From assembly GCA_038065235.1 (NCBI GenBank), contig JBBTRK010000014.1, positions 16,629 to 80,628 on the forward strand: a stretch of 64,000 bases of DNA, written 5' to 3'. The notes beneath the pieces were generated by a model, which made no database searches, was not told the origin of the DNA, and was given only the letters and a program-made list of their open reading frames with translations. The stretch comes from Patescibacteria group bacterium. GTDB lineage: Bacteria; Patescibacteriota; Patescibacteriia; PEXW01. Positions 5,198 to 63,904 of the stretch are shown piece by piece. Each line of letters starts with the position of its first letter. Position 1 is the stretch's first letter. The position numbers and the translations under genes were made by a program.

Positions 5198-6160
5198 CTA
5201 TTGTATCTTCAAAAAGTGACTATCAATCCAGTCTAAATACCGGGCAGCGATGTCGGGTTTTTTCAGCATGTACTGGTATGCAACGAGAATGAGTGCTGCT
5301 TCAATTAAATATGCGTATACAGTCTTATCATCAGGCATGGAATAGTACGGCGTTGCAGCTTTCAAAAAAGCTTGACCTAGCGCTTCGCCACCAAGCGCAA
5401 AAACATCAGCGGCTGGCCGAGTAATATTCACCAACGGATCCACTGCAAGCCAGTGTTCTTTAAATTGATAAATGTCCAAGAATTCAATACTGTCGTCAAA
5501 AATGAGGATATTTCCAGCGTGATTATCAATAGCAACCTGCATTTTGGCAGAATCGTACGCACGTACGTACGGATCATCGGCAATTTTCTCTAACGCCTGA
5601 AGAACATTTTGAACGTACATTACTGGCAGCTGCTCCGGGACCATTGCGCACCATTCTCGTAAATCCTGCAATCGGAGCAAGTAGAGCTCCCGCCATGGCC
5701 TCTTAAACGTTGGGATTGTTGCTGCCTTCAACAAAGTTAAGTTGTGTAAACGCGTCATCATTGTATCTGCAACCTTACCCACTATCACTGCATTAGCCTT
5801 GCCTTGTAACAAGGTATGGTGCAGATTCTTTTCTACATCAACTTTCGCCATGACAATAGAAAAATCTTCTGCTTCGGCCATGGGGCATACTTGCCAAACC
5901 CCATCTACTTGCTTGGCGCCTTCGAGATGAAGATATATCTCGGGACACATCAAATTGTTCCATACAAAATCTTCTTGCACGAATTTCCTACGAAAAACTG
6001 GATCATCTAGCCTCCCTACAAAGCCATTGTCATATCGGTATACTTTGCGGGCAAACGTTTTATACAAAAAAACTTTCGAAATGACCGAATCCACGGTTTT
6101 CACGCACGAATCATCTATGCCAACAACACTATTTTTTTCTAGAGCCTCAAAATACGTCAT
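5198..6160 (-). CDS. Protein-kinase-like-fold phosphotransferase (putative), AT-rich gene
   Basis: 320 aa. Catalytic-loop-like IDNHAGNIL (D-x4-N) followed by IFDDSIEF (a DFG-like position). GC is visibly lower than the flanks. Overlaps the next gene by 4 bp. Confidence 0.5.
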   Translation of the reverse strand: MTYFEALEKNSVVGIDDSCVKTVDSVISKVFLYKTFARKVYRYDNGFVGRLDDPVFRRKFVQEDFVWNNLMCPEIYLHLEGAKQVDGVWQVCPMAEAEDFSIVMAKVDVEKNLHHTLLQGKANAVIVGKVADTMMTRLHNLTLLKAATIPTFKRPWRELYLLRLQDLREWCAMVPEQLPVMYVQNVLQALEKIADDPYVRAYDSAKMQVAIDNHAGNILIFDDSIEFLDIYQFKEHWLAVDPLVNITRPAADVFALGGEALGQAFLKAATPYYSMPDDKTVYAYLIEAALILVAYQYMLKKPDIAARYLDWIDSHFLKIQ

Positions 6161-6954
6161 TTGCCTATTAAAAGTGTACGGGTTCGACGGTCAAATCCTA
6201 CCTGTTTTTGTTCACCCCGAAAATAAATCTGCAATTCAACTTGGTCTTGATTGTTTTCTTCAGAAGCAAGGACTTCAATTTCTATTAGTTCACCATGTTT
6301 AAGTGGTTCCTCGCCACGTTCAGATAAATTAAATACTTTCTCACTAAGCTGCCCAAGGAGTTCAAAGTGTGACACACCAATAATATGGGGCTTTTGTAAC
6401 TCTTTATGTTTATGCACAACGTTAAAAGCGCGTATTGTATACTCCAAATTCTTAAAAAAACGCTTCTCTACCTCACTTCTAGGCTCATAGATCGTTGCAT
6501 CTTCAAAGCGTTGATCATGCAAGTAAGCACGATCCACACCGCGTACGGGAGCTTCTTCTTTATGCGTATTCTTGTTTTCTGCGAGCATTTCTTCAAATAT
6601 TTCTTTGGCTCGCTCACGATCGCGCAATTGCATCGCGGTCATACTGGGTTGAATCTTCACTTCTTTAGAATAACCAATCTTCTCTTTAATAATGTCTGCA
6701 GAACCACGTGCTCGCGCTTTATCGGAGCTTACTATTATTGGCTCCTCTTCGTGCCGTAAACCTCGTGCTATTTGCTCAGCACTCTTTTCTATTGTCGCTT
6801 TCCCTTCAACGGTGAGGTCTGGATATTCATCCGTATACTCGGTTTGTCCGTGCCGAAGCAAGGTAATGCGTCCTAACTCAACCAAATGCTCTTGCTCTTT
6901 TGATTCAGCATCCGGCAATTGTCCTGAGCTATGTGGATCACCTTCTCTATACAT
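6157..6954 (-). CDS. Histidine phosphatase superfamily protein (phosphoglycerate-mutase-like branch)
   Basis: 265 aa. RHG motif LLRHGQTEY near the N-terminus of the fold. AT-rich. Confidence 0.65.
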   Translation of the reverse strand: MYREGDPHSSGQLPDAESKEQEHLVELGRITLLRHGQTEYTDEYPDLTVEGKATIEKSAEQIARGLRHEEEPIIVSSDKARARGSADIIKEKIGYSKEVKIQPSMTAMQLRDRERAKEIFEEMLAENKNTHKEEAPVRGVDRAYLHDQRFEDATIYEPRSEVEKRFFKNLEYTIRAFNVVHKHKELQKPHIIGVSHFELLGQLSEKVFNLSERGEEPLKHGELIEIEVLASEENNQDQVELQIYFRGEQKQVGFDRRTRTLLIGK

Positions 6955-6967
6955 ATACTTTTGCTCG

Positions 6968-7885
6968 TTACCTTCCCCCCGCCATCAACCACGCCCCTAA
7001 GGCCGGGCGCAGCTTGGGTTTTACAAACTGCACTTTCGGTGCAACCTGTTTCACCGCCACTCGGAAGTACGTTGGCAAAATAATTGGACACTTAAAAATC
7101 CCACCAACGGTAACGAGGGGGAAGACCTTTCGCTGCAATCCACTCTTTTTAATAACCGTGATGGCGAGTAAAGCCAGCTCAATAGCTGCATGAACGAGAA
7201 TATTTTTCGCAACGTGGTCCCCTCTCTCCGCGGCGAATTGCACGTAGGGTGCGAGCGCGGCAATCTGTGGTTTCCCAAATGTTGGTTCGTATACAATACG
7301 CACCAGTGCATCAACGTTACGAATTTTGAAGTGCTTGAGGACGTACGCGGTAAGTAATGTTTTTGGTCCACGACCATCTGCCGCTTTGGTCACGGCGTGA
7401 AGTGCTGCGCTGCCCTGTGCAAACCCCGAGCCTTCATCAGCTAACCGATGTCCGCGTCCGCCAGCCCGCGCAACGCCCTTTGGTCCATGAGCGTACGCAT
7501 TAGAACCAGTACCAGAAATAATCACTGCTGCCTGTTTAGAATCCGTTCCCGAACGCAGGGCAATGACAATGTCATTCACGAGCTTCCAGCCTGGGGCAAA
7601 AATGCCACGAAGTTCTTTGGTGAGCGCGCGGTGCATAATGGAAACATCTTTTGGCGTATCCATCCCGGCCAAACCAATAACTGCCTTATACGGTCGCTTC
7701 CGACCAAGTTGCTTTTCAGCTGCGAGGGCAGCTGCTCTCACATTATTCGCCGCAGATGCTATACCAACTGCATGCGGGTTTGATGGACCGGCCTTTCCCC
7801 AGGCAACGCGTTTCCCAATGCCAAGGAGTGCTTCGGTTTTCGTCCCGCCGCCGTCAATGCCGAGGAACCATTGCTGCTGTTGCAT
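6968..7885 (-). CDS. BadF/BadG/BcrA/BcrD-type ATPase / N-acetylglucosamine-kinase-like (ASKHA superfamily)
   Basis: 305 aa. N-terminal phosphate-1 motif LGIDGGGTKTE. GTGSNAY and DEGSGF motifs. Confidence 0.75.
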   Translation of the reverse strand: MQQQQWFLGIDGGGTKTEALLGIGKRVAWGKAGPSNPHAVGIASAANNVRAAALAAEKQLGRKRPYKAVIGLAGMDTPKDVSIMHRALTKELRGIFAPGWKLVNDIVIALRSGTDSKQAAVIISGTGSNAYAHGPKGVARAGGRGHRLADEGSGFAQGSAALHAVTKAADGRGPKTLLTAYVLKHFKIRNVDALVRIVYEPTFGKPQIAALAPYVQFAAERGDHVAKNILVHAAIELALLAITVIKKSGLQRKVFPLVTVGGIFKCPIILPTYFRVAVKQVAPKVQFVKPKLRPALGAWLMAGGR

Positions 7886-7955: not shown

Positions 7956-8390
7956 GAAATCGGCAGGTCGATACATCAGCCAGTAAAGGCTTGAAGAGTG
8001 GGCAGGCAAACCAGTCTGCTAGAGCGGCATAGATACAAGATCGATGAGCGTTAGGCTGGTTCAGTTACGAACGAGCAAGCTTCGATCGGGTGCACGGAGT
8101 TAGTACTCTCTACGTGCGTTCAGTGGTGCTCTAGGAACATTGCTTCACCGAAGTGAAGGATGCGGGATTGCTGTAGCAGCTACGATGTACCTGTTAACAG
8201 GTGTGTGGCCAAATTAATGGTCAATTGCTGCGCCCTTCATGTTGAGGACTCTACCGAGTTTTCAAAGCACTGAGCCATGTTTCTTTCGGAAGACAATCAT
8301 ACTCGATGCTTCAGACGTGGTCAAGGCACAATATCCACATTTCTAGCATTTTTGTACCTGGTAGAATTTTAAAAAGCTTATTTCTTGGCT
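7956..8390 (-). ncRNA. Candidate structured ncRNA or long cis-regulatory leader (class unresolved; RNase P RNA considered)
   Basis: ~430 bp with stops in all six frames. Contains a UUCG-tetraloop hairpin (CCTTCAC-TTCG-GTGAAG), and the AGAGCACCAC tract loosely resembles RNase P CR-IV (see finding). A TAAAAT -10-like box lies near 8370 on the minus strand. Ends in the intrinsic terminator at 7913-7955. Confidence 0.3.
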
Positions 8391-8421
8391 AACGGTAGCG
8401 GTATAAGTTATCCACACCCCT

Positions 8422-8434
8422 AAACACGTTGTTT
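8422..8434 (+). promoter_or_regulatory. Palindrome AAACA-CGT-TGTTT upstream of lexA (candidate SOS/LexA box)
   Basis: Perfect 5-bp inverted arms, 3-nt spacer, ~45 bp upstream of the putative lexA -35. Confidence 0.25.
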
Positions 8435-8477
8435 CTTCTGTCACCGTAAAAATGGCGAATATTTAAGTAAATAAACC

Positions 8478-8506
8478 TTGAACTTCGGCTTTCCTTCGGG
8501 TATACT
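8478..8506 (+). promoter_or_regulatory. Putative lexA promoter TTGAAC-N17-TATACT (near-leaderless)
   Basis: -10 TATACT ends 11 nt before the ATG at 8518. Confidence 0.4.
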
Positions 8507-8517
8507 CCCCTGCACCT

Positions 8518-9138
8518 ATGGCTCCCATCCTCCACAAGCAGAAACGCGCCATCCTGGAATACCTTCAGAAGTCCATACAGGACAACGGTTACGCCCCTAC
8601 GCTCACGGAAATTGCCAAAGCGTTTAACCTCTCCTCCCTTGCTACAGTGCACGAGCACCTGGCGTTCTTAGAGGAAGCTGGTTTCATAAAACGCGACCGA
8701 AATAACGCGCGAGGCATTACCCTATCTGAACCCGAGCAGGATGAGGAAGCAAGCGCCACCTCCATGCTCTTGCCGTTAGTTGGCACAATTGCTGCTGGCT
8801 CCCCTATCGAAGCATTTGAAGACAAGCAGGATATGGTTGCCGTGCCGCGCGAGCTGGTCGGCCGTAAGAATGCGTACATCCTCAAAGTTCGTGGTGACTC
8901 GATGATCGAAAGCCTCGTCGCCGATGGCGACCTAGTAGTGGTGGAGAAGAGCCAACTCGCTCATGATGGTGATATGGTTGTGGCTATGCTGGAAGATGGC
9001 ACGGCGACGCTGAAAAAATTCTTCCGCAAGAAGAACTTCGTCCGACTGCAACCCGCGAACGTCAACTACAAACCCATAGACGTGAAGAACGTGACCATCC
9101 AAGGAAAAGTCATAGGCGTCATTCGGAAATTTTCCTAA
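8518..9138 (+). CDS. lexA: LexA repressor (S24 peptidase)
   Basis: 206 aa. N-terminal wHTH (TLTEIAKAFNLSSLATVHEHLAFLEEAGFI). Ala-Gly cleavage site (VGTIAAGSP). Ser (GDSM) and Lys (ATLKK) catalytic dyad context. Confidence 0.9.
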   Translation: MAPILHKQKRAILEYLQKSIQDNGYAPTLTEIAKAFNLSSLATVHEHLAFLEEAGFIKRDRNNARGITLSEPEQDEEASATSMLLPLVGTIAAGSPIEAFEDKQDMVAVPRELVGRKNAYILKVRGDSMIESLVADGDLVVVEKSQLAHDGDMVVAMLEDGTATLKKFFRKKNFVRLQPANVNYKPIDVKNVTIQGKVIGVIRKFS

Positions 9139-9179
9139 GCTATTTTTTTACTTTACAGCTTCGGTTTTTCTTCGGCACA

Positions 9180-9992
9180 ATGAACTTCTTCACTCGCCTC
9201 TCACAACGCGCATCCAGCAACGGCACAGCAGTCGCCCACGTGCGGCTGTGGAACTTTGTCGCGAGCGTTGAACAAGCGCTACAGCCATCACTGCGGAACA
9301 CGCCATTCGCTGTCGTTGATGCAAACAATGCATCTGGACGAGTTATCGATGTAAATGAGCTGGCACGAGCATTGGGCGTACGACCTGGAACAACCGTACA
9401 CCGTCTACGGCAACGTTTCCTAAACGTGCAGATCCGCCAGTACAACCAGGAACGTATGCAAGGTTTCTCAAAAGCTTTCTTCACCCAGGCGAAGCGTTGG
9501 GGCAGAGTTGTCAAAACGGACGAAGCTGGCTATGCAATAACCATTACCATTCCAGCGGTTAATGCCCTGGAACGCGCCGCAGTATTCATGCACATGCAAG
9601 AAATGTGCTGGAAAGAGCTCGAGTGCAACATCACGGTTGGCATTGGTTCAACTATTGCATTTGCAAAGTTGGCTGCCATAGCGTGTGTCGAGCCAGGGTT
9701 TCGCTACTTCGATTGCCATGAGCATCAGGTACTCAATACGCTACCCGTGAGTATCATCCCGGGCATAGGTCGACGGACGTCTGCAGCGCTCGTGCAGCTG
9801 AACGTCCCAACGGTGTGGCACTTCTTGCAGCTCGATCCACAAACGGTCGAGCAGCTCGGCGGGCGGTCTTTGCTCCGCCTCTACCGGCAATACATTCTGG
9901 TGGCTGCATTACCATTCATCGAGCCACTATACACACCATCGGTGAGAATGCACCACCTCTTCCAAAGCACCGCTACAAGCAGCGTAGCGTAA
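9180..9992 (+). CDS. Y-family DNA polymerase paralog lacking catalytic aspartates (ImuB-like), truncated before the little-finger domain
   Basis: 270 aa. Aligns to the DinB N-terminus: DinB IIHVDMDCFFAAVE versus VAHVRLWNFVASVE here, so D8/D10 are replaced by R/W. Also SANY...FGV-like VDANNASGRVIDVNELARALGVRPG and HhH-like LPVSIIPGIGRRTSAAL. Immediately downstream of lexA. Confidence 0.6.
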   Translation: MNFFTRLSQRASSNGTAVAHVRLWNFVASVEQALQPSLRNTPFAVVDANNASGRVIDVNELARALGVRPGTTVHRLRQRFLNVQIRQYNQERMQGFSKAFFTQAKRWGRVVKTDEAGYAITITIPAVNALERAAVFMHMQEMCWKELECNITVGIGSTIAFAKLAAIACVEPGFRYFDCHEHQVLNTLPVSIIPGIGRRTSAALVQLNVPTVWHFLQLDPQTVEQLGGRSLLRLYRQYILVAALPFIEPLYTPSVRMHHLFQSTATSSVA

Positions 9993-10020
9993 GAAAGACA
10001 CAGACTGAATCTTGAGAGTG

Positions 10021-10890
10021 CTAGGAGCTAACTTTCCGGACTTTCACAATGCCTCTGGCAATGAGTATTGCCCGGGCTTGTGCGAGCACTGAGCGCAGAT
10101 CCTTATGTAAGGTTTTCGGCGGTTTTGGTGATGCCACTGGAACCCATAGAAGTTTGAGGTTTGCCACCTCGCCTGTCATAACCCTAGGAAGCGTTCGAGA
10201 GCTCGTCCGTAAAAAAAGGAAGTGATGTAGATGATGGGGTATTTTTTTCGCTAATTTCCCGTGGTCGTCCGAAAGGTACTGCACACCAGGTAAACGAGCG
10301 ACGTACTCGAAATCAGCAACCCCAGTTTCCTCAGTTATCTCCCGCTTCGCAGCAACAAGCAGTGTCTCCCCGATTTCACGATGGCCTTTGGGTGTTCCGA
10401 TACGAAGGTTGTCTTTGCGTTGAACAAAAAGCAATGCGCGCTTCGCTGGGTCGTACACAACGCCACCGGCATTCTCGTGAAACTTCAAACCCCGTGAGGG
10501 TTTAGAAATATTTGGCTCGGCATCGTAACGCGGGGTCAAATATTTCTGTGGCGTTTCCCGAAGTGCACGTTCACCATCCTGAATGACAACCGCCAGGTCA
10601 ACTTGCTGATCTTGCCTTTGCACCATGACGATAGGACATTGTGCAGCGAACGCCAATGTGTTCGCGGTGGTGAGCAGTGAACGCGTTGCCGAGAATGAAA
10701 GCCTATCTTTAGCAACGACAACACCAGTCAAGTAGGGTGCTTGCCTTGGGCTAAGTACATGAGCAATCTGATTGAGGAGTTGACCGCGACCAGTCTGGGG
10801 AAAGTGTTTTGAGTGTCGGTGTGCACCACGTAGCCATGCAATTGTGGTGCCTTCAAACCCTACGACAATGACGAGCAGAGATTTCTTCAC
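10021..10890 (-). CDS. Fusion of a TsaB (YeaZ)-like N-terminal domain and a NUDIX hydrolase
   Basis: 289 aa. N-terminus LLVIVVGFEGTTIAWL...AQCPIVMV resembles the t6A TsaB N-domain. C-terminus carries the Nudix box GHREIGETLLVAAKREITEETGV. Confidence 0.6.
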   Translation of the reverse strand: MKKSLLVIVVGFEGTTIAWLRGAHRHSKHFPQTGRGQLLNQIAHVLSPRQAPYLTGVVVAKDRLSFSATRSLLTTANTLAFAAQCPIVMVQRQDQQVDLAVVIQDGERALRETPQKYLTPRYDAEPNISKPSRGLKFHENAGGVVYDPAKRALLFVQRKDNLRIGTPKGHREIGETLLVAAKREITEETGVADFEYVARLPGVQYLSDDHGKLAKKIPHHLHHFLFLRTSSRTLPRVMTGEVANLKLLWVPVASPKPPKTLHKDLRSVLAQARAILIARGIVKVRKVSS

Positions 10891-17607: not shown

Positions 17608-17681
17608 GTATGCATCCTTCCCAAGGATGAGATACGGGTTCGATTCCCGTTACCCGCTCCATGAACCACTCACTATCGTTC
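17608..17681 (+). tRNA. tRNA-Gly (anticodon CCC)
   Basis: Acceptor GCGGGTA/TACCCGC, anticodon loop TTCCCAA, T-loop TTCGATT, CCA encoded. Confidence 0.9.
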
Positions 17682-17711
17682 GGGTTCATGGCAGGCCAAC
17701 TTGTGCCGATG
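17679..17711. repeat. 33-nt hairpin element CCATGAACC-N15-GGTTCATGG overlapping the CCA end of tRNA-Gly (copy 1 of 2)
   Basis: Perfect 9-bp inverted arms. The same element, reverse-complemented (1 nt different), lies at 20580..20612 on the CCA end of tRNA-Thr(UGU). Confidence 0.6.
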
Positions 17712-17724
17712 TAGCTCAGCTGGT

Positions 17725-17800
17725 AGAGCAATGCTTTCGTAAAGCATGGGTCGGAGGTTCGAATCCTCTCATCGGCTCCAGGAATTTTCATTAAACGTAC
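17725..17800 (+). tRNA. tRNA-Thr (anticodon CGU)
   Basis: Acceptor GCCGATG/CATCGGC, anticodon loop TTCGTAA, T-loop TTCGAAT, CCA encoded. Confidence 0.9.
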
Positions 17801-25617: not shown

Positions 25618-25797
25618 CTAAACGGACTGGGAATCCCCAAGCTTTCGTTGGTAGGTTTCAACAAGTGCACTTTGAGCACGGTTGGCTTCTTGCGCAGCCT
25701 GCTTAATCAACTTTTTTTGCTCTCCTGAAGGGAGGCGAAAAAAGTTCTGGCGACCATGTTGGCTGCCTTTAAAAAATGAAAGAAGACGTGTAATCAT
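25618..25797 (-). CDS. 59-aa helical ORF overlapping the zeta-like gene stop (ATGA); candidate partner or antitoxin-like protein
   Basis: MITRLLSFFKGSQHGRQNFFRLPSGEQKKLIKQAAQEANRAQSALVETYQRKLGDSQSV, hand-translated. One codon short of the ORF-track cut-off. Start and stop overlap the upstream gene, which suggests translational coupling. Confidence 0.4.
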   Translation of the reverse strand: MITRLLSFFKGSQHGRQNFFRLPSGEQKKLIKQAAQEANRAQSALVETYQRKLGDSQSV

Positions 25798-26495
25798 AAG
25801 CTTTTTCTAAGTTGATCTTTAGTATACGGACAAACAATATGATTGTCAATATTATCAATATTGAAGCGTGTCTTTTTTACGCTTTTATTTGACCAATCTT
25901 TTTCTATGAGAAAAAGCTCCACATCCTTCTTGAACATTTCTTTTACGCGATTTGCATTTTCTCTGGCAGCAAAAAATGCCTCGATAAAAGCTTCTTTAGG
26001 TAAGTAACGACCTTCTTCTTTTTCACGAATCTGTGTGAACTTCCATGCTACTTCTGGCTCTTGATAAATATAAATAATCCCAATTTTCCGTTTACGCTTA
26101 ATTGAACGTGCAACATCTTCTATACAATATTTGTCGTCTGCGAATGTCCCATCAAGTAGAATATTCTGCCTTTCTTTTAAACAATAATCGTATAGTTTTT
26201 GCACGCCAAGAGCGGAAGCACCCTGTACTTCGTTAGAGTTACTACCTGTATATTGTGGTAGCATCTTCTTAATTTCATCAGCATCAATTCGGACACATTG
26301 TATTGACGGCTTTCGGCGAGCCAAACTCTTCACTAAACCTTCAGAAAACTCTGTTTTTCCTGCACCGGGTGAGCCCGCCATAAAAATGGTAAAGGGATCG
26401 TCCATTGGCGGATATGCACGTGGGTCGGCAAAACGAACGATGAGCTCGTCACGATGTGCCTTTAAAAAATCCACTGCGTCTTCAGCAATGCTCAT
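25794..26495 (-). CDS. Zeta-toxin-family-like P-loop kinase (AAA_33 / PezT-like)
   Basis: 233 aa. Walker A FMAGSPGAGKTEF, then the CVRIDADEIKKMLPQY segment matching the zeta catalytic region (ViDxDxfR). Low GC. Confidence 0.6.
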   Translation of the reverse strand: MSIAEDAVDFLKAHRDELIVRFADPRAYPPMDDPFTIFMAGSPGAGKTEFSEGLVKSLARRKPSIQCVRIDADEIKKMLPQYTGSNSNEVQGASALGVQKLYDYCLKERQNILLDGTFADDKYCIEDVARSIKRKRKIGIIYIYQEPEVAWKFTQIREKEEGRYLPKEAFIEAFFAARENANRVKEMFKKDVELFLIEKDWSNKSVKKTRFNIDNIDNHIVCPYTKDQLRKSL

Positions 26496-26501
26496 GGTGA
26501 T

Positions 26502-29039
26502 TTATGCCTTCCGCTCCGCGACCATCGGTGGCGGGGCAGCTGCGCCGAGCTGGGAGCGTTCCAGGATTTCTTTTTCTACGGTTTCCCGCAGGACGCCGAA
26601 CTGTTTGCGTGAGAGGCTTACCAGGTGCTCAACGAGGCCAGGTGTCGCTGGGGCCAGTGGCAACGTCTTCATGGTGAATGGCTTCGACATGGTGTTGTCG
26701 ATGAGGAGCTTTACAATTGCGGTGTACTTCTCTACGTTAGTTACGTCGAAGGCACTGAAGGTGGGGGCGAACGTCTGGGCGAACGTCTCGGCATCTTCCA
26801 CACCCACGCGGAATGCCACGACTGTGCCGACGTTACCGAACACCGCGTCGCGAATTTTTGTATCTGCGCCCTGCACCAACTGCCCGACGTACTGGTGGGC
26901 AATGGTGAGGTTCAAACGGTACTTCCGCGCTTCAGAAAGGATGGTCGCGATGGAGTCGGTAATGAAATTCTGGAACTCGTCGATGTAGAGGAAAAAATCT
27001 CTGCGCTGCTCTTGGGGTAATGATGCTCGACGTAAGGCTGCCATCTGAAGCTTCGAAACAATAATGAGACCCAGGAGGTTGGCGTTCACCTCGCCAGTTG
27101 TACCTTTCGAGAGGTTCACCAGCAAAATCTTGCCTTCGTTCATAATGCGCTGGAAGTCGAAGCCGCTCTTCGATTGACCAATGACATTACGCATCATGGT
27201 GTTCTCCACAAACCGGCCGACCTTGCTAATGAGGTAGCCCAGCATTTCGGACTTATGGAAGTCGCTGGTCTTCGCCATCTCCTTTTCCCAAAACGCCCGC
27301 ACAATAGGGTCAGTCACTTTGGAGACCTTTACCTTCTGAAACACTGGGTCGGTGAACATCCGGGGGATTTCGACGATGGTACCCGGGTGCTCGGGATCGG
27401 ACATGAGCGTGAGCATGACGTTGCGCATGTTGTGCTCGAACATTGGGCCAATCATCTCGGGTGGGAAGAGTTTCATGAAAATAGAAATCATCTCCTGCAC
27501 TGCGAAGTCTTTATCCTCGGGGTTCTCGGCATCCAGCATGTTCAAACCAACCGGGGCCTGCATATCTGACGGATTGAAATGGATAACGTCCTTCAAGCGA
27601 TGGGCGGGTATCCGACCCATGATGTCGACGATGAGGTCTCCGTGCGGATCCACGACGCACACGCCATCACCGTTCGTAATGTCCTGCAAAGCCATCTGCG
27701 TCATGAGTACAGACTTGCCCACCCCAGACTTCCCAATGACGTACACGTGGCGGCGGCGGTCTTCCCGGGCCACACGGATTTTCGCCTCTTCGCCGCGGTA
27801 GTGGCTGGTGCCGAGCAGTACGCCAGTTTTTGGCAAATTGACAGGCGGAGGGGCATTGCGCGAAAGCACCCAACGAATGTTCGGAGTTTCTGTGGTGGCG
27901 AGCGGTAAGTGCCACAGGCTGGCAAGTTCTTCAATACTCAACGTGGCGTAACGAGGCCGAAGGGTGAAACGATTGCCATCGAACATTCGGTATATGAAAC
28001 TTCGAATGATTGTTTCGTTAGAGTGCCAAGCATTCTTCCAGAAACGATTCCCCGTTTCGGGGGAAGCGTACTGGCCGAAGGCAGAAATGATATTCTGTAA
28101 ACGTACGGAAGCAGATTGCTGGGTGGCACTACTGACGATAATGCGAATGTTCACGTCGAGCGCTGGCTTGGTGTTCTTCTCTTGCAGGCGTTGGATGAGT
28201 TCCTCTTGCACAGGACTGACAGGTTTGGGCATTTCCTCTTGCTGCACACTCTTCTTCGTACTGAAGAACATGCTCCAGAGCCCACCAATAATTTTCCCAA
28301 CTAAAGAAGGGTTCGCCTTCCCACCCGCACGGAGATTCCGAATGGATGCTGCGGCACGGGTATGCCAGCGGGGGTGCGAAGACCGGCACACGTACTGGAT
28401 AACCGCTGACTCATCAGGATTCAGTTTCGAGAGCGCATTGGTTAAACCCCCGAGCGGGTCAACATCCATGCGACGGTACGAGAGAATGGGGAAGAGCGAC
28501 CGTTGCCGAAGACTCAGTGCTGCGGCCGCGACGTGGGACGTGGGACGGAAAGGGTTATACTCGGGCGTGACGAGTATTTCGGCGTCAGCGTACTGGGCTT
28601 GAATCTGCTGCTCCATGAACTCTTTCATCGGCTTTGGAACCACAACGTAGAAGGTTATGAGCTCACGGTCGGCAACGATTTCTAAACTGAAGTGGTCGTT
28701 CCGCCCCCGGCCGAGCGTGTGGTACCAACGCTGCGCGCGCATGTTGCCTAGGAACGAGAAGAATGACTCCCCCACGCTAATCTGCTCCTGCATTTGCTGG
28801 ATGCGCGATGGTCCTTTCCCTGAATCCTCTTCTTGCTGCTCCTTTGGCAGCGTTACCATGAGGCAGACGAGTTTTTCGGTCGATGGTTTTGCGCTCCGTC
28901 GACGAATGATGAAGAAGATGACCAATCCGAGCCCAACCACTGCGCACGCAATACCAAACTGAACCCAAGGAAAAACCGTGGCATAGTCGTTCTCGAGGGT
29001 ACCGACCTGCGCCTGCGCCGCGTGGACGAACTGCAGCAT
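26502..29039 (-). CDS. Type IV coupling-protein-like ATPase (VirD4/TraG/TraD family) with N-terminal TM and a ~400-aa N-terminal extension
   Basis: 845 aa. Walker A HVYVIGKSGVGKS followed by the T4CP-typical VVDPHGDL (compare vLDPKGE). Walker B FLYIDEFQNF. N-terminal TM GIACAVVGLGLVIFFII. Confidence 0.65.
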   Translation of the reverse strand: MLQFVHAAQAQVGTLENDYATVFPWVQFGIACAVVGLGLVIFFIIRRRSAKPSTEKLVCLMVTLPKEQQEEDSGKGPSRIQQMQEQISVGESFFSFLGNMRAQRWYHTLGRGRNDHFSLEIVADRELITFYVVVPKPMKEFMEQQIQAQYADAEILVTPEYNPFRPTSHVAAAALSLRQRSLFPILSYRRMDVDPLGGLTNALSKLNPDESAVIQYVCRSSHPRWHTRAAASIRNLRAGGKANPSLVGKIIGGLWSMFFSTKKSVQQEEMPKPVSPVQEELIQRLQEKNTKPALDVNIRIIVSSATQQSASVRLQNIISAFGQYASPETGNRFWKNAWHSNETIIRSFIYRMFDGNRFTLRPRYATLSIEELASLWHLPLATTETPNIRWVLSRNAPPPVNLPKTGVLLGTSHYRGEEAKIRVAREDRRRHVYVIGKSGVGKSVLMTQMALQDITNGDGVCVVDPHGDLIVDIMGRIPAHRLKDVIHFNPSDMQAPVGLNMLDAENPEDKDFAVQEMISIFMKLFPPEMIGPMFEHNMRNVMLTLMSDPEHPGTIVEIPRMFTDPVFQKVKVSKVTDPIVRAFWEKEMAKTSDFHKSEMLGYLISKVGRFVENTMMRNVIGQSKSGFDFQRIMNEGKILLVNLSKGTTGEVNANLLGLIIVSKLQMAALRRASLPQEQRRDFFLYIDEFQNFITDSIATILSEARKYRLNLTIAHQYVGQLVQGADTKIRDAVFGNVGTVVAFRVGVEDAETFAQTFAPTFSAFDVTNVEKYTAIVKLLIDNTMSKPFTMKTLPLAPATPGLVEHLVSLSRKQFGVLRETVEKEILERSQLGAAAPPPMVAERKA

Positions 29040-29592: not shown

Positions 29593-29907
29593 CTACGGTT
29601 CCTGCGATGGTGGGGTTGCCGGTGGTTCTTGTAGTTTCAATTTCTCCTGCTTACGCTGCACCCACAGCGTATGGAAATACATGTACGTACCGGTTAGAGC
29701 CATGATGAAGAGCACAATACTGAAGTACGTACTCACTTGCCCGTGCAAGTACCGTACACGACCAGCGGATAACCACGCCGGCAGCCACTCGAACCAGCTC
29801 GGGTACCGCATGATGGAACCCGTACCCGACATAACCACGAACAACCCAAGGAAGATTAGCACGAGGTACCGGTGGATTCTTCGACTGAACGTGTAGAGAT
29901 TAATCAT
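29593..29907 (-). CDS. Small membrane protein (2 TM)
   Basis: Start set at MINLY (GGGAGG lies 9 nt upstream) rather than the longer ORF-track start. Two hydrophobic helices. Confidence 0.45.
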   Translation of the reverse strand: MINLYTFSRRIHRYLVLIFLGLFVVMSGTGSIMRYPSWFEWLPAWLSAGRVRYLHGQVSTYFSIVLFIMALTGTYMYFHTLWVQRKQEKLKLQEPPATPPSQEP

Positions 29908-30406
29908 CGTCTTCATCCTCCCGTTCCCCGCTTTGTGGAATAAGCGTACTAACATTGGCATTCACTTGGGTGATCGTATTCGCTGTCGTCGTACTGCCGA
30001 GTGTTCCCAAGCGGAGAGCAGCTAGGTCAGCGCTCGCGCTTGATGAATGCGTGCCATTACCACCGCGAGTTGCAAAAGCTGTGGTCGCGTCCTTCCCGCA
30101 ATACGGAATAATACGACTTGCGCCTCCCGGGTGTTTGGTGAGATACCCGGTCACGGCGTACACTCCCTTACTGACAATGATCCAGCAGTCACTTGCACTA
30201 CTGTGCCTCGCAACTGTTGCAACATCGAGATTAACCGAAGGAGAAGCTGAGGCAGAGGTATTCGTGAGCCCTGACGTAGTATTCGTCGTGGGGCTACTAA
30301 CGAAGGGAACTGAAATAACTAAACTATCGTACCGAGCCGAAAAAAACGCGACAATTCCAACAACGGCAACGAGACCGACAAGTCCAATGGTATTCTCTGT
30401 CTTCAT
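29900..30406 (-). CDS. Membrane-anchored cytochrome-b5-like heme/steroid-binding domain protein
   Basis: 168 aa. N-terminal TM. Cyt-b5 signature HSSASDCWIIVSKGVYAVTGYLTKHPGG...IIPYCGKDATTAF. Thr/Ser-rich linkers. Acidic tail. Confidence 0.6.
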   Translation of the reverse strand: MKTENTIGLVGLVAVVGIVAFFSARYDSLVISVPFVSSPTTNTTSGLTNTSASASPSVNLDVATVARHSSASDCWIIVSKGVYAVTGYLTKHPGGASRIIPYCGKDATTAFATRGGNGTHSSSASADLAALRLGTLGSTTTANTITQVNANVSTLIPQSGEREDEDDD

Positions 30407-30466: not shown

Positions 30467-31054
30467 CTACTCGCCGAGTGCTTGGGCAACTTTCCCAGCA
30501 ATCTTCAGGTCTGGTACAAGATCTTTGCCATTGGTATCCCAACTCACCGGGCAAGCATGGCCGGGGTTATTGCGCACATAGGTCAAGGCTCGGAGCTTCC
30601 GCACTATTTCGCTTGCCGAACGGCCAATGTTCTCGGCCACAACTTCTGCTGACTGGAGCAAACCTTCAGGATCGATAATGTACACACCCCGATCTGCAAT
30701 GCCACTGACTTCATTAAGAATACCAAGTGTTCGGGCAAGGAGCCCGGCGTGATCAGCAGCCAGTGGGTAACGCACATCTTTGAGTAAGGTCTCGGTTTCG
30801 ACCCATGCTTTATGGGTGTAGACCGTGTCTGTACTCACCGCCAGAACCTCTGCCCCAAGTGCCTGAATGTCGACGTAATTCCTGGCAAGGTCACGTAATT
30901 CAGTTGGACACACGTACGTGAAGTCCGCCGGGTAAAAAAACACTACAAGCCACTTCCCTTTGAATGCAGCGAGGTTTACATCCTTGCGGCTGCTATCGTG
31001 TGGATGGTACGTATCAAGATTGAAGTCTGGAAATGCTTGGCCAATTTTGGGCAT
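30467..31054 (-). CDS. Peroxiredoxin (AhpC/TSA family)
   Basis: 195 aa. Peroxidatic Cys motif FFYPADFTYVCPTEL. Resolving-Cys region NPGHACPVSWD. Confidence 0.9.
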   Translation of the reverse strand: MPKIGQAFPDFNLDTYHPHDSSRKDVNLAAFKGKWLVVFFYPADFTYVCPTELRDLARNYVDIQALGAEVLAVSTDTVYTHKAWVETETLLKDVRYPLAADHAGLLARTLGILNEVSGIADRGVYIIDPEGLLQSAEVVAENIGRSASEIVRKLRALTYVRNNPGHACPVSWDTNGKDLVPDLKIAGKVAQALGE

Positions 31055-31072: not shown

Positions 31073-31891
31073 TTAAACTGGGCGAAGTGTGCCTGCGAAC
31101 ACCTGCCAGGCCAGCAGTGACTTCGCCACGAGGCTGAGGATAATATACGCTCGCTCACCGTAAAGGTAATCCTTCCACTTCCCAATCTTCTTGTACTGCA
31201 ACACCATATTGATTGCGAAGCAGTTGAAGAACAGGAAGATGGAAAAGAAAATCCAGTACACGAACGTCGGTGCGTGTCCGTTTGGCCCGCCCGAACCGAA
31301 GAGGTAGAACGCGACAATGAGCCAAGGGACGAAACCGGCAATACTCCCGAAAATGAATGACGTCCAATCAGTGCGCTTCGTCGTCTGGTTGTGCAACTCC
31401 ATCATCCAGCCAAAGAGCAACATCATCATGTTCAGGAAGAAAATGAGAAGGAGACTAGAGAGGTCGGCCATACCCGTGAGCATGACGACGATGACAATCA
31501 TGAGCGAACTGGAAAACGCGTACTCAATCCAGCGTGCCAAGTTCATGCCTTTCTTCAAATTGTTCTCGTACCATGCTCGCACCGTTGGGAGGCACGATAC
31601 CGCGAAGTGCGCAAAGGCAGAGAGAAAGAAAAAACCTGCAACGAGCGGCCCAATTTGAATATCTGCAATGGTCTTGAGTACGGGCACAAGCATGTTCCGA
31701 ATTGGATCCATCTGCACATACGCCGTAGTCACCGGCAAATTGAAGCTGCTGCTAGCAAAGAGCAACGCCACACCTTGCAAGAAGTGCAAACATGCCATAA
31801 CGATGTTGAACCGATAGAGCTTCTTCAACTTACGCTGCGTAGAGGTGATGGCGGGCATTTCGATAGACGTTGATGTTACTTTCATGAGCAC
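31073..31891 (-). CDS. Heliorhodopsin (7-TM retinal protein, inverted topology)
   Basis: 272 aa. Strong similarity to characterised heliorhodopsin segments: NLARWIEYAFSSSLMIVIVV...LLFGWMMELHNQ, GFVPWLIVAFYLFG, and TM7 ERAYIILSLVAKSLLAWQVFAGTLRP with the Schiff-base Lys in LVAKS. True start may be at Met12. Confidence 0.8.
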   Translation of the reverse strand: MLMKVTSTSIEMPAITSTQRKLKKLYRFNIVMACLHFLQGVALLFASSSFNLPVTTAYVQMDPIRNMLVPVLKTIADIQIGPLVAGFFFLSAFAHFAVSCLPTVRAWYENNLKKGMNLARWIEYAFSSSLMIVIVVMLTGMADLSSLLLIFFLNMMMLLFGWMMELHNQTTKRTDWTSFIFGSIAGFVPWLIVAFYLFGSGGPNGHAPTFVYWIFFSIFLFFNCFAINMVLQYKKIGKWKDYLYGERAYIILSLVAKSLLAWQVFAGTLRPV

Positions 31892-47177: not shown

Positions 47178-48380
47178 TTACTTAATGTTTAACGTCCGAC
47201 CTTCGGGCAAAACTTCGATCCAGGTATTGCCGGGGAGGAACGTCGCTGGGGTTCCGTCAGCCAAGGTGAATACGGTGCGGTCTTCAGATTTCACTTTGCT
47301 CCATGTGATATCCAGAACCTGCCCTTTCTGAAACAGCTGCGCTTTCCCCGTACCCGTCACTGACATAGCTAAGCGCCCCTTCTCACCGACTGCTATTTTG
47401 TTAGAGACACGCTGAATGACAAGGTTGGTGACGCCAAGAGTTGCTTTCGTCAAACGATCCTGGTGCTCTTTGCCAGCCTGACTGCGTAGCCACTGCTGCT
47501 TCGCCGCATCGTAGGTATAGCTCACCTCGGTACTCTTCGTGCGGCCAGTGAAATAGAAGGTGACGTTCTTCGCGGCAACCCCAGCAGCGAGCGTAGTGCC
47601 GAACGTCCACGGTGTTAGTGTGATGTCGGAGTACTTAAGTTTATTCGCCCGAGTGGTGATGAACATTTTCATCCCGCTAGTGTACAAATTGTGCGGCGCT
47701 GGGCGAGTACTATCGCGAAAGAATGCGTTCGACGCGCTCCCAATGCCGTTGATGTCGTGGATACGTTCACGACGGATGTTTGTGAGCGCCTCGGGCGAAC
47801 CACCCGCATGGGCGTAAGCAGCCTCGTACTCTGCGAGCCACTCTAAGAAATACTGGCGCGCCGAGCGTACTGGGCCAATTTCTTTCACATCCCCTTGGTC
47901 AAACACCGCCATGAAACGCGTAATGCCGCCTTCGACGAGCGCTTCGTACACAATCGATGCAGCCTGCAGCGAAGATTGTGGCCGTGCTGATCCTGCATTA
48001 TCAATCATGACCGCGACTGGGTAGAAGTGCCCGTGGCTGAAACGGTTCCCCCCGGTGAGGTCAGGGGCAAACTCTGTTGGCACAGTGCTGACTTTTTGCT
48101 TCGTGGTGGGAACGACGGTAATCGTTGCTTTCTTTGTGAAGTGTACGAATGCCACCAAGGACATACCGAGTGTGACGACGAGAATGGCGGCGAGGGTGAG
48201 GTAGGTCCAGCGCGTCCAGTGGTGGTGGGAGAGTGGCGCTAACCCAAGCGGACCCACAGGTGTGGGTGTGGGGATTTGCGGTTTCGCAGGCGGGATAACT
48301 GATTTCACCGGTACTGCTTTAACGATAATATTTTTCTTCGGCGCTGGTTTTGCGTTTACGGTTGGTTTTGGTTTTGGCAT
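47178..48380 (-). CDS. DUF3048-domain protein (YerB-like), membrane-anchored
   Basis: 400 aa. DNAGSARPQSSLQAASIVYEALVEGGITRF is the DUF3048 core. Confidence 0.65.
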   Translation of the reverse strand: MPKPKPTVNAKPAPKKNIIVKAVPVKSVIPPAKPQIPTPTPVGPLGLAPLSHHHWTRWTYLTLAAILVVTLGMSLVAFVHFTKKATITVVPTTKQKVSTVPTEFAPDLTGGNRFSHGHFYPVAVMIDNAGSARPQSSLQAASIVYEALVEGGITRFMAVFDQGDVKEIGPVRSARQYFLEWLAEYEAAYAHAGGSPEALTNIRRERIHDINGIGSASNAFFRDSTRPAPHNLYTSGMKMFITTRANKLKYSDITLTPWTFGTTLAAGVAAKNVTFYFTGRTKSTEVSYTYDAAKQQWLRSQAGKEHQDRLTKATLGVTNLVIQRVSNKIAVGEKGRLAMSVTGTGKAQLFQKGQVLDITWSKVKSEDRTVFTLADGTPATFLPGNTWIEVLPEGRTLNIK

Positions 48381-48410: not shown

Positions 48411-49484
48411 TTAGTAGGTAACGTATTTCTCTGGTAAGTCTACCACCTCTACCCAGGTTTGCCCGCGGTTGAGCTGGATAGCCGCCCCAGTACTGTCGAG
48501 TAGCTGAAGCTGTGATTCAGGTGAGGATTTCTTCCAGGTTCCAGTGACCATCTCGCCATCGCGGAAGAGCAAGAGCTTCCCTTCGCCGACAATCACAATG
48601 TCCCGCCGAAGCTTATCGAAAAGCTTCGACGTGGTGAACATGATGGCAACGTTCTTAGGCTCTAGTGCGCCGCCTTCCTTATCTATAGCGAGCGTGCCGG
48701 CCTGGCTGCGCTTGTACACGTTGCGGCTCGCATCGTAGGCAAAAGAGACACGGTAACTTGCTGTAGAAAAGTCCACGACAATAGGCTTCGTCGTAGGCGT
48801 TGCTACCGGCGAATCATCTTTAAAAGACCAGCTCTCATAGTCGCCGCGATCTTTGAATTTCATTGCCCGCCAGCCGAGCTCCATAAGGTGGAGGTTGGTG
48901 AATAGCGAGTGCTCTTGCGCCCGTCCAGGAATATTGTAGAAATTGTACTTCTTATAGAACTGATTGAAATCCGTAATCTTTGTCTTCTCAATTTCGATTT
49001 GCGCTTGCGGGGATTGCCCGGCGTGAACGTAGATACCATTGTAGGCACGGGCAAGCTGGACGAAGTATGGCCGAGCCGAACGGATTGGACCAATGTTGAG
49101 TTTACCATTCACCGCGAAGATGGCGAGAAAACGCGTAATACCGCCTTCCGCGAGCGCTTCATACACCACACCTGCTTTCGAAAGGCCACTCTGCGGCCGC
49201 ACCGAGGTGTGATTCTCCACCACCATCATGAGCGGCAGGTGGTTGGACTTCTCTGACTCCACGAGCACGCCGTCGAGCTTCCGGGGTACAAGCGCGGCGG
49301 TATCTAATTCACTATTCGTATTCGCACTGCCATCATCGTTGGCGGCGCTCCCACGGAATGTCAAGTAGCCCCCAATGCCAATTAGCACCAGCGCTCCAGC
49401 GCCCGCAGCGATCAGCCAGGGCCAGCGGAGCTTACGCTTGCCAAACGTATAGTCACTTGGCCGATCGGTGAGCTTCTGACCCAT
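48411..49484 (-). CDS. DUF3048-domain protein, paralog
   Basis: 357 aa. ENHTSVRPQSGLSKAGVVYEALAEGGITRF. Tandem with the previous gene. Confidence 0.65.
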   Translation of the reverse strand: MGQKLTDRPSDYTFGKRKLRWPWLIAAGAGALVLIGIGGYLTFRGSAANDDGSANTNSELDTAALVPRKLDGVLVESEKSNHLPLMMVVENHTSVRPQSGLSKAGVVYEALAEGGITRFLAIFAVNGKLNIGPIRSARPYFVQLARAYNGIYVHAGQSPQAQIEIEKTKITDFNQFYKKYNFYNIPGRAQEHSLFTNLHLMELGWRAMKFKDRGDYESWSFKDDSPVATPTTKPIVVDFSTASYRVSFAYDASRNVYKRSQAGTLAIDKEGGALEPKNVAIMFTTSKLFDKLRRDIVIVGEGKLLLFRDGEMVTGTWKKSSPESQLQLLDSTGAAIQLNRGQTWVEVVDLPEKYVTY

Positions 49485-63705: not shown

Positions 63706-63904
63706 ATGCGCTTGTATTATGACGAAAGCTCGAACGCTCCCTAAGGAGCGCCGAAATTATGAAATAGAGAGTTGAGTAGCTATTCCCTTCGTTTGGCAGT
63801 GCATGGTATGGGTATTACTTTGATTTCTAAACCTATTATACCACGTCTGAACGAGTTTTGCAACAGTTAACAATATCGCTATGGATAAATGCTAGAATAC
63901 ACGC

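Follow-up and report, generated by a model that had tools for sequence, protein, structure and literature searches.

The question raised by this locus is what a gene of Y-family DNA polymerase ancestry, apparently deprived of its active site, is doing directly behind lexA, and whether it belongs with ImuB. The locus lies in a 64,000-nucleotide stretch (here called the window) of a Patescibacteria group bacterium, positions 16,629 to 80,628 of contig JBBTRK010000014.1 in assembly GCA_038065235.1, and consists of lexA and a short gene that we call IMS-short, which an earlier note on this DNA had described as a dead, ImuB-like paralog without the usual imuA and dnaE2 partners. Mutagenesis induced by DNA damage is organised by inactive Y-family polymerases such as ImuB, which are essential to it, and the contribution made by the dead core itself is poorly understood. 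Our answer, which we consider probable, is that the two genes constitute an SOS module of Kerfeldbacteria-related Patescibacteria, made of lexA and a dead core derived from DinB. The elements of the locus are as follows.

8478..8506, forward strand: predicted lexA promoter (promoter scan), with the -35 box TTGAAC at 8478-8483, a 17-nt spacer and the -10 box TATACT at 8501-8506
8484..8499, forward strand: candidate LexA operator 1, TTCGG-CTTTCC-TTCGG, period 11, filling the spacer of the lexA promoter
8518..9138, forward strand: lexA, 206 amino acids (aa), with an N-terminal winged-helix DNA-binding domain and an S24 autopeptidase domain
9143..9149, forward strand: run of seven T directly past the lexA stop, kept in this position in all related loci; it may be a promoter element or, in some loci, the tail of a terminator
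9160..9175, forward strand: candidate LexA operator 2, TTCGG-TTTTTC-TTCGG, 21 nt past the stop codon of lexA and 4 nt short of the IMS-short ATG
9180..9992, forward strand: IMS-short, 270 aa, a DinB paralog predicted to be catalytically dead and without a little finger, based on PF00817, alignments to Dpo4 and DinB, a family alignment and an AlphaFold2 model

The presence of lexA, claimed from inspection, was supported by the NCBIfam scan, in which the product reached 197.8 bits on TIGR00498 against an equivalog cut-off of 110.95, and by matches to both LexA domains (PF01726 LexA_DNA_bind, E 5e-16; PF00717 Peptidase_S24, E 5e-31). By inspection, the translation holds an Ala93-Gly94 cleavage site (IAA93-G94SP) together with Ser128 (GDS128M) and Lys166 (TLK166K), which presumably correspond to A84-G85, S119 and K156 of E. 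coli LexA. The score on the UmuD model, 66 bits against a cut-off of 110, reflects generic similarity, and the pairwise ratio of nonsynonymous to synonymous divergence (dN/dS) against relatives is 0.01-0.07. Judged by these matches, the open reading frame (ORF) at 8518-9138 is a bona fide LexA. Since its ATG lies only 11 nt past the predicted -10 box, the lexA leader would be very short; the same arrangement of TTGnnn, box and TATACT occurs in related loci, and many metagenome matches have a -35 box of the TTGAC type.

The second gene starts 42 nt downstream of lexA. Its product matches the IMS domain PF00817 (E 4.8e-22, residues 25-166) and, slightly below the cut-off (23.7 bits against 24.4, E 5e-5), IMS_HHH; the helix-hairpin-helix (HhH) recognised earlier is indeed retained, its PGIGRRT motif being invariant. 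The protein is composed of an N-terminal extension (residues 1-16), palm, fingers and thumb with the HhH (about 17-240) and a tail predicted to be disordered (241-270), in which L244-P245 is invariant. The AlphaFold model calculated on the family alignment (pLDDT 82, pTM 0.75) is confident over the central part, about residues 17-240, and superposes on the catalytic core of Dpo4/DinB (Foldseek E 1e-17 to 1e-14, TM about 0.72). Codons 2-20 show an excess of third-position substitutions (464 vs 338 and 266) and no indels, therefore ATG 9180 is taken as the start. The ORF ends at 9992, 29 nt short of the stop of a convergent gene at 10021, and the observation that it stops at 270 aa before any little finger was corroborated: the Pfam scan gave no match to PF11799 in the protein, and tblastn with two full-length DinBs of relatives matched the N-terminal core alone and detected nothing coding for a little finger in the whole window. 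The NCBIfam models of Pol IV and UmuC cover only the first ~235 residues and score far under their cut-offs (65.5 bits against 399 for the best Pol IV model, 44.6 against 431 for UmuC); the best NCBIfam matches are all Pol IV. At the C-terminus, the tail reads ALPFxEPLY...HHLFQ, compared with QLSLF in the intact DinB of relatives, and the canonical Q of the clamp motif is absent from it.

The polymerase active site appears to be lost, as had been proposed. In the HMMER alignment to Dpo4, R22 falls on D7, W24 on D9 and V27 on the steric-gate Y12, and the hhalign alignment with a relative's intact DinB places HLDMNSYFASVEQ against HVRLWNFVASVEQ; several dNTP-contacting positions are altered as well. 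L23-W24 is invariant across a 21-sequence family alignment, within the motif VRLWH, and distant members read IQLWH, ISLWH, ISINH or VSIWH. As to the downstream acidic pair, which the earlier note regarded as kept, D114-E115 do align with D105-E106 of Dpo4, and to this extent the claim stands; E115, though, is found only in the window protein and a 96% identical relative, and D114 in 5 of the 21 sequences. Elsewhere in the family these two positions are DA, DP, DT, ST, AP, TQ and others (in contexts such as TDAPG, IDPTG, TSTDG and TTQDG), and the distant members likewise have no DE. Because the pair is limited to the window and this one relative, the family as such lacks all three catalytic carboxylates, and D114-E115 in the window protein is, on the alignment, a chance or relic state and not a family feature. 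With the carboxylates, the steric gate and the little finger lost, no DNA synthesis by IMS-short is expected, and we predict that it cannot polymerise DNA.

A dead enzyme is not necessarily a dead gene, and the distribution of IMS-short bears on this point. The family comprises about 35 proteins of 258-292 aa with intact frames and identities down to 31%. A word-indexed search returned 25 homologues (261-292 aa, 50-96% identity), of which those carrying a taxonomic label are Patescibacteria, and an exhaustive hidden Markov model (HMM) search of 1.84 billion cluster representatives gave only four clusters above 188 bits, all of 258-277 aa, followed by a drop to 89 bits, where ordinary full-length DinB-like proteins begin. 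Five GTDB species representatives carry the gene, one of them named Candidatus Kerfeldbacteria. Compared pairwise with six relatives, IMS-short has a dN/dS of 0.06-0.16 at saturated dS, and its dN is about four times that of lexA; dozens of alignment columns are invariant, including the new family-specific motifs CWxELEC and VRLWH. The order of genes is fixed in 12 of 12 independent loci, including those of members only 31-36% identical: a BadF-type ATPase (-), lexA (+), IMS-short (+), a TsaB/Nudix gene (-), a 186-aa winged-helix-like protein (-) and a protein of ~750 aa (+). Because of the purifying selection, the constant length and the fixed place directly downstream of lexA, IMS-short is, as far as comparative evidence can tell, a real gene and not a pseudogene. 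No account of a conserved dead Y-family polymerase (PolY) core lacking the little finger, nor any of the present Patescibacteria family, was found in the literature searched; the paper of Sanchez-Osuna et al. (2017) on the Patescibacteria SOS regulon may list the gene as 'dinB'.

The convergent neighbour (10021-10890, -) has a Nudix domain at residues 137-270 and an N-terminal part without a Pfam match. This N-terminal half is probably TsaB/TsaD-like, as the same slot in loci L018 and L065 holds a short TsaB/TsaD-like protein without Nudix, which would make the window gene a lineage-specific fusion.

Where the short protein came from was addressed by comparing the family profile with single sequences, which limits the sensitivity of hhalign. 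Against the intact DinB of relatives it gave 94.6% (E 7e-8, 203 columns), against 0.6% over 43 columns for Agrobacterium ImuB, the reference being the pTi gene flanked by an ImuA-family gene on one side and the gene of an error-prone polymerase on the other. In the same type of scan, this ImuB carries IMS, IMS_C and a C-terminal DUF6504, and IMS-short carries IMS and HhH only. The designation ImuB-like is therefore acceptable as a functional analogy; by sequence it does not hold, and IMS-short, on these profiles, is derived from DinB independently of ImuB. In many of the best full-length matches to the family profile, another residue, mostly Ser in a motif xSLDxF, stands in place of the first catalytic Asp, and three of these proteins occupy the place of IMS-short directly downstream of lexA:

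L018:4662-5849: full-length xSLDxF PolY, protein P0180, 395 aa
L056, ~8750-9960: full-length xSLDxF PolY, 402 aa
L071, ~6030-7170: full-length xSLDxF PolY, 393 aa

P0180 retains DE, the little finger and a RecA-NT-like C-terminus and stands in the same synteny as IMS-short, and the genes of L056 and L071 are preceded, like that of L018, by the same T-run and box. Ser is also found at the first-Asp position of the basal short members (ISLWH, VSIWH). Since lexA-linked full-length PolYs and basal short members share this Ser, the first Asp was presumably lost while the protein was still full-length; the other acidic residues and the little finger would have followed, giving the form of 258-292 aa, and in one lineage shrinkage would have gone on to a 196-aa remnant. 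The latter is represented by L065:8091-8681 (+), a protein in the same lexA-linked slot in which only thumb and HhH are recognisable and whose neighbouring LexA is 63% identical. Most relatives have in addition an intact DinB about 4 kb away (HLDMNSYF, SIDEAF, QLSLF and a RecA-NT-like end), and IMS-short has no such xxIxxxFG C-terminus, in contrast to the full-length PolYs of relatives. An intact DinB is not present at that site in the window, nor in L001 and L008, the two nearest relatives for which the surrounding DNA is available.

The full-length xSLDxF clade comprises P0032, P0035, P0041, P0042, P0180 and P0181, in which the DE pair, the steric gate and the little finger are retained together with a RecA-NT-like end. 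A separate and unrelated family of 243 aa (P0054, P0105) is also dead and without a little finger, LTIP or LKIP replacing DxD; P0054 ends in QLPLQFRKV, a peptide of clamp-binding type. Among the distant IMS-short members, the tails read QLPFP..WLF or RLNFGLF.

The third element of the module is its presumed operator. The earlier note had proposed the palindrome AAACA-CGT-TGTTT as the SOS box. It is located at 8422-8434, as reported, and is the sole exact AAACA-N3-TGTTT in the 64 kb, but with one mismatch there are 2 occurrences against 2.37 expected, and its column block is unconserved in a four-locus alignment of the upstream region; we therefore rejected it as chance-level. The same alignment contains an invariant TTG..-TTCGGCTTTCCTTCGG-G-TATACT right before the lexA ATG. 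Exact TTCGG-N6-TTCGG occurs twice in the window against 0.11 expected, and a position weight matrix (PWM) built from related sites gave 35.7 bits to operator 1 and 28.3 to operator 2, the next best site of the window reaching 11.7. A near-match at 63740-63755, upstream of a dockerin/subtilase gene, departs from the pattern at one position, scores less than 10 with the PWM and was treated as chance. The two copies are found again at corresponding positions in nearly all related loci; L129 has no exact second copy. Several relatives have a third operator, within the TTGAC-box-TATACT/TATGCT promoter of an 84-aa gene (p84) that adjoins intact dinB. When metagenomes were scanned for the box with TAT..T behind it, at least 120 stretches were returned; among the matches listed, the first downstream ORF encodes a LexA homologue in at least 37 (32-87% identity), a p84 homologue in at least 8 and a full-length PolY in at least 3, other first ORFs encoding radical-SAM/HhH, SplB-like, dnaE-like polymerase and HNH proteins. 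This recurrence before LexA homologues and other genes is the pattern expected of a general Patescibacteria LexA operator. LexA motifs that are direct repeats are listed in PMC8565304 and PMC7739468, both of which cite a Patescibacteria study, the latter among the cases in which LexA evolved to recognise a direct repeat. Therefore, TTCGG-N6-TTCGG is a probable candidate for the LexA operator, lexA is most likely autoregulated through the copy in its own promoter, and IMS-short is predicted to be under LexA control. Within the visible 64 kb, the predicted LexA regulon consists of lexA and IMS-short only.

How operator 2 would act is a more delicate matter. Its distance from the lexA stop is about 20-25 nt in nearly all of the lexA-PolY loci covered, and it ends 1-4 nt before the ATG in most of them, 14 nt before it in L018, where a clean TATACT lies between, and ~190 nt before it in L016, L017 and L096; its position is accordingly anchored to the lexA stop and the conserved T7-8 run, and not to the downstream start. 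A terminator scan of 8200-10300 found none. A terminator between the two genes was considered and dropped, as a hairpin before the T-run exists only in L005 and L007. An independent sigma-70 promoter for IMS-short (TTTACA-18-CACAAT) is doubtful, since it would start transcription inside the ORF, where codons 1-20 are clearly coding. Operator 2 could be part of an independent promoter or an internal roadblock in an operon of lexA and the paralog.

Several observations concern the operator and lexA expression more generally. Metagenome contigs contain tandem arrays of an 11-bp unit, TTCGGnTTTnn, in up to 11 copies (L098:1007-1121, L113:3692-3740, L082:86-123), which is the operator half-site at its native period. 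Many fusions of a complete LexA with DNA methyltransferases were also seen behind the same operator among the matches listed, as single ORFs of 486-624 aa with LexA N-terminal (helix-turn-helix and S24 peptidase): LexA is fused to a C5-cytosine methyltransferase (PF00145) in a 525-aa form at L026:1349-2926 (+) and to an N6/N4 methyltransferase (PF01555) in a 621-aa form at L022:5303-7168 (-). Length and a LexA BLAST match point to similar ORFs in L029, L047, L068, L101, L109, L120 and L124, and in L053, L059, L122 and L133. A brief literature search returned no description of a self-cleaving LexA-methylase fusion, which looks unusual. At the -35 position of the LexA-methylase promoters of L022, L053, L059, L114, L122 and L133 lies CTGTGGATAACT, a sequence of DnaA-box type. 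Upstream of lexA in the window, the sole perfect DnaA box of the 64 kb, TTATCCACA, and a second copy matching at 8/9 positions are located at 8408-8416 and 8331-8339, both kept in four relatives, and a small conserved palindrome, GCTAACGGTAGC, lies at 8388-8399. A DnaA input into lexA expression is possible. The suggestion from these boxes that the region is oriC was set aside, as GC skew shows no inflection near 8 kb, and no Rfam RNA was found in the 630-bp intergenic region, the search of the whole window giving six tRNAs only.

The absence of the usual mutasome partners was verified: tblastn with the Agrobacterium cassette found no imuA, imuB or dnaE2 in the window or in 17 related loci, the sole match being a DnaE1-like dnaE at 29% identity. 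The window dnaE (53366-56806), considered replicative in the earlier note, has 39-46% identity to replicative DnaE1 and about 30% to DnaE2, and the PWM scan found no LexA operator at this gene; it is DnaE1-like and looks replicative. Box matches upstream of dnaE-like genes in L064, L073 and L131 were given no weight as signs of a DnaE2 partner, since L064 and L073 show overlapping ORFs of GC-rich type and may not be Patescibacteria.

The partner that relatives do possess is p84, encoded directly upstream of intact dinB in many Patescibacteria contigs and sometimes in the order lexA-p84-p84-dinB. One such locus is arranged as follows.

L005:12487-12502: candidate LexA operator of p84
L005:12212-12466, reverse strand: p84
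L005:10707-11942, reverse strand: dinB, downstream of p84

Other p84 loci are L003, L007, L012, L017, L044, L052, L066, L099, L116, L125, L129 and L130. Seven of twelve p84 homologues match DUF6504, a model that also matches the C-terminus of Agrobacterium ImuB, with a best E of 0.001 and all scores under the gathering threshold; residues 428-444 of that ImuB align with the motif FxWRGKxYKI of p84, and p84 has, conserved at its C-terminus, the Trp and the basic residues that have been described for ImuB-C (PMC3765255). Hence p84 is very probably a standalone ImuB-C domain. Neither p84 nor intact dinB was found in the 64-kb window; the best tblastn match to p84 (17645-17767, E 0.009) falls on two tRNA genes.

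Taken together, we propose that LexA would repress lexA through TTCGG-N6-TTCGG placed between -35 and -10, and IMS-short through the second copy. Upon DNA damage, RecA-stimulated self-cleavage of LexA would switch on lexA and IMS-short, induction of both being expected because an operator copy precedes each. The induced protein would keep the palm-fingers-thumb fold and an HhH able to bind the DNA backbone, the family having apparently lost not only the three carboxylates and the steric gate but also the little finger, a clamp motif of QLSLF type and a C-terminus resembling RecA-NT, the last two of which the full-length DinBs of relatives still possess. Without a little finger it could not hold primer-template as polymerases do; the surface of thumb and HhH would contact DNA, and the tail ALPFxEPLY...HHLFQ would contact a partner such as the beta clamp. 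As for function, a non-catalytic accessory or regulator of lesion bypass induced in the SOS response seems to us the most likely role, and we put it forward tentatively. It is favoured because the HhH, the thumb, new surface motifs and L244-P245 of the tail are retained, and because clamp-like tails occur in distant members and in P0054. A bolder version would be that, on a route separate from that of ImuB, the lexA-linked DinB of one Patescibacteria lineage became a minimal, non-catalytic hub induced in the SOS response, a 270-aa core unable to bind dNTP or metal that gates lesion bypass by docking DNA and a partner, the latter being the beta clamp via the tail, an ImuB-C-like p84 with active DinB, or a UmuD'-like LexA fragment; this we regard as possible but rather unlikely.

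Some points weigh against the module and the role proposed for it. LexA binding to the repeats, induction by damage and the function and activity of IMS-short are all read from sequence. Operator 2 abuts the ATG in most loci and leaves no space for a -10 box or a leader, and no terminator is conserved past lexA. The tail motif is devoid of the canonical clamp-motif Q and shows weak similarity across the wider family. The size series from 395 through ~270 to 196 aa could be read as slow decay, and imuA, dnaE2, intact dinB or p84 could lie outside the 64-kb window.

Alternative explanations have been weighed against the same evidence. The decay just mentioned, in which IMS-short would be a functionless remnant of a lexA-linked dinB that has merely not been deleted so far, accounts for the shrinking positional orthologues, for a dN about four times that of lexA and for the apparent disappearance of every catalytic and partner-binding module. 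It is improbable in view of a dN/dS of 0.06-0.16 (dS saturated), of a constant 258-292 aa with intact frame in about 35 sequences, and of dozens of invariant columns, new motifs and a conserved operator of its own; streamlined genomes, moreover, normally purge dead genes. At the other extreme, an enzyme that still polymerises through an unconventional active site, or with a little finger supplied from elsewhere, could invoke D114-E115 of the window sequence, but this pair is unconserved, Arg and Trp occupy the other acidic positions, the steric gate and dNTP contacts are changed, no little-finger sequence exists in the window and the Pol IV equivalog score is 65 against 399, which makes this reading scarcely credible. 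It is also very unlikely that IMS-short is a genuine orthologue of ImuB, serving as hub of an ImuA-ImuB-DnaE2 mutasome for which the partner genes lie in another part of the genome: like ImuB (PMC6511836), it has a Y-family fold devoid of catalytic carboxylates and is predicted to be LexA-controlled, and only 64 kb of the genome are in view, but the profile favours the lineage's DinB (94.6%) over Agrobacterium ImuB (0.6%), the little finger, RecA-NT motif and ImuB-C/DUF6504 are missing, and neither imuA nor dnaE2 was found in the window or the 17 related loci, where the only dnaE is DnaE1-like.

Two further alternatives give the dead core a specific partner. It might belong to a Patescibacteria-specific mutasome equivalent to an ImuB in pieces, formed with LexA-controlled p84 and an active, RecA-NT-bearing DinB. 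The third operator of relatives precedes p84, directly upstream of an intact DinB about 4 kb away, and the likeness of p84 to ImuB-C (the DUF6504 matches in seven of twelve homologues, the alignment of FxWRGKxYKI to ImuB 428-444, the Trp and basic residues) fits the proposal. We find it unlikely, since neither p84 nor intact dinB occurs in the window or at the syntenic site of L001 and L008, p84 is always coupled to an active DinB, even in genomes without the dead core, ImuB-C with DinB is known as a self-sufficient module, and every DUF6504 score is under the gathering threshold. The other candidate partner is LexA itself, whose cleaved, UmuD'-like C-terminal dimer would bind the UmuC-like core and modulate RecA filaments, LexA turnover or polymerase access. 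A strictly conserved order of S24 peptidase gene and Y-family gene mimics umuDC, LexA is generically UmuD-like (66 bits), and a separate umuD was seen in no locus; shared regulation would, however, account for the adjacency just as well, lexA-dinB operons being common, and the C-terminus and palm/little-finger cleft by which UmuC is contacted by UmuD' in Pol V (PMC12926913) are both missing in IMS-short, so that this partnership appears highly improbable.

If the hub proposal were true, the ImuB principle would have been invented a second time by convergence, in the smallest form known and in genomes without ImuA, DnaE2 or UmuD. The IMS-short family would offer a natural minimal version of the dead core, with palm, fingers and thumb only, purifying selection and its own predicted LexA operator, and the stepwise route from Asp to Ser, then to loss of the little finger and finally to a remnant separates the non-catalytic role of the core from its appended modules and makes that role testable. 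The operator assignment for this Patescibacteria lineage is corrected to a candidate direct repeat instead of a palindrome. If the clade of the window is really without an active DinB, DNA damage would induce only a dead polymerase, which would be genuinely odd.

Elsewhere in the window, a heliorhodopsin gene (31073-31891, -; PF18761, E 1e-96) adjoins genes for an AhpC/TSA peroxiredoxin (30467-31054, -) and a cytochrome-b5-like protein (29900-30406, -). A zeta-toxin family kinase (25794-26495, -) adjoins an 845-aa TraG/TrwB-like coupling protein of type IV secretion (26502-29039, -), a pair that may be a mobile-element remnant. Two tandem DUF3048 paralogues are encoded at 47178-48380 (-) and 48411-49484 (-), a Baseplate_J-like protein at 56880-58103 (+), directly downstream of dnaE, and, at 60403-63705 (-), a protein of 1100 aa in which some ten dockerin type I repeats are followed by a subtilase domain at the C-terminus.

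Compared with known systems, IMS-short seems to resemble ImuB only broadly, as a dead PolY under predicted LexA control: both have the Y-family palm, fingers and thumb, have lost the carboxylates and are presumably non-catalytic, whereas IMS-short is about half the size and has no little finger, RecA-NT, QLPLWG-type clamp motif or ImuB-C domain, shows no detectable ImuB-specific similarity, lacks imuA and dnaE2 nearby and would have originated independently from the lexA-linked dinB of its lineage. With umuDC the locus shares an S24-peptidase gene followed by a Y-family gene and a predicted SOS operator, but the upstream gene encodes a full LexA, not UmuD, and IMS-short is closer to DinB than to UmuC and predicted to be inactive. 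The lexA-dinB operons of Pol IV agree in gene order, predicted LexA control, DinB ancestry and best NCBIfam matches; the difference lies in a score far under the equivalog cut-off and in the absence of catalytic residues, little finger and a canonical clamp motif. The predicted operator recalls the Alphaproteobacteria LexA operator GTTC-N7-GTTC, likewise a direct repeat of period 11, since CTTC-N7-CTTC is contained within TTCGG-N6-TTCGG and lies in the promoter spacer. Operons of standalone ImuB-C with DinB, and at times LexA, have been described (Aravind et al., 2013; PMC3765255), and relatives carry this module as p84 with intact DinB behind the same operator; it is not in the 64-kb window, and IMS-short is an additional, separate gene. 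Finally, the inactivated PolYs (iPolYs) of Timinskas and Venclovas (PMC6511836, PMC12926913) comprise Streptomyces DinB2, Geobacter bemidjiensis DinB2 and the Kyrpidia tusciae group; the text of the 2026 survey (PMC12926913) is without mention of Patescibacteria. The iPolYs are full-length proteins with the RecA-NT motif, linked to DnaE2 and/or to a standalone ImuB-C, none of which IMS-short has in cis, but they are DinB-like proteins with a destroyed active site, often encoded in operons that include lexA, and it is to these inactivated groups that IMS-short is nearest.

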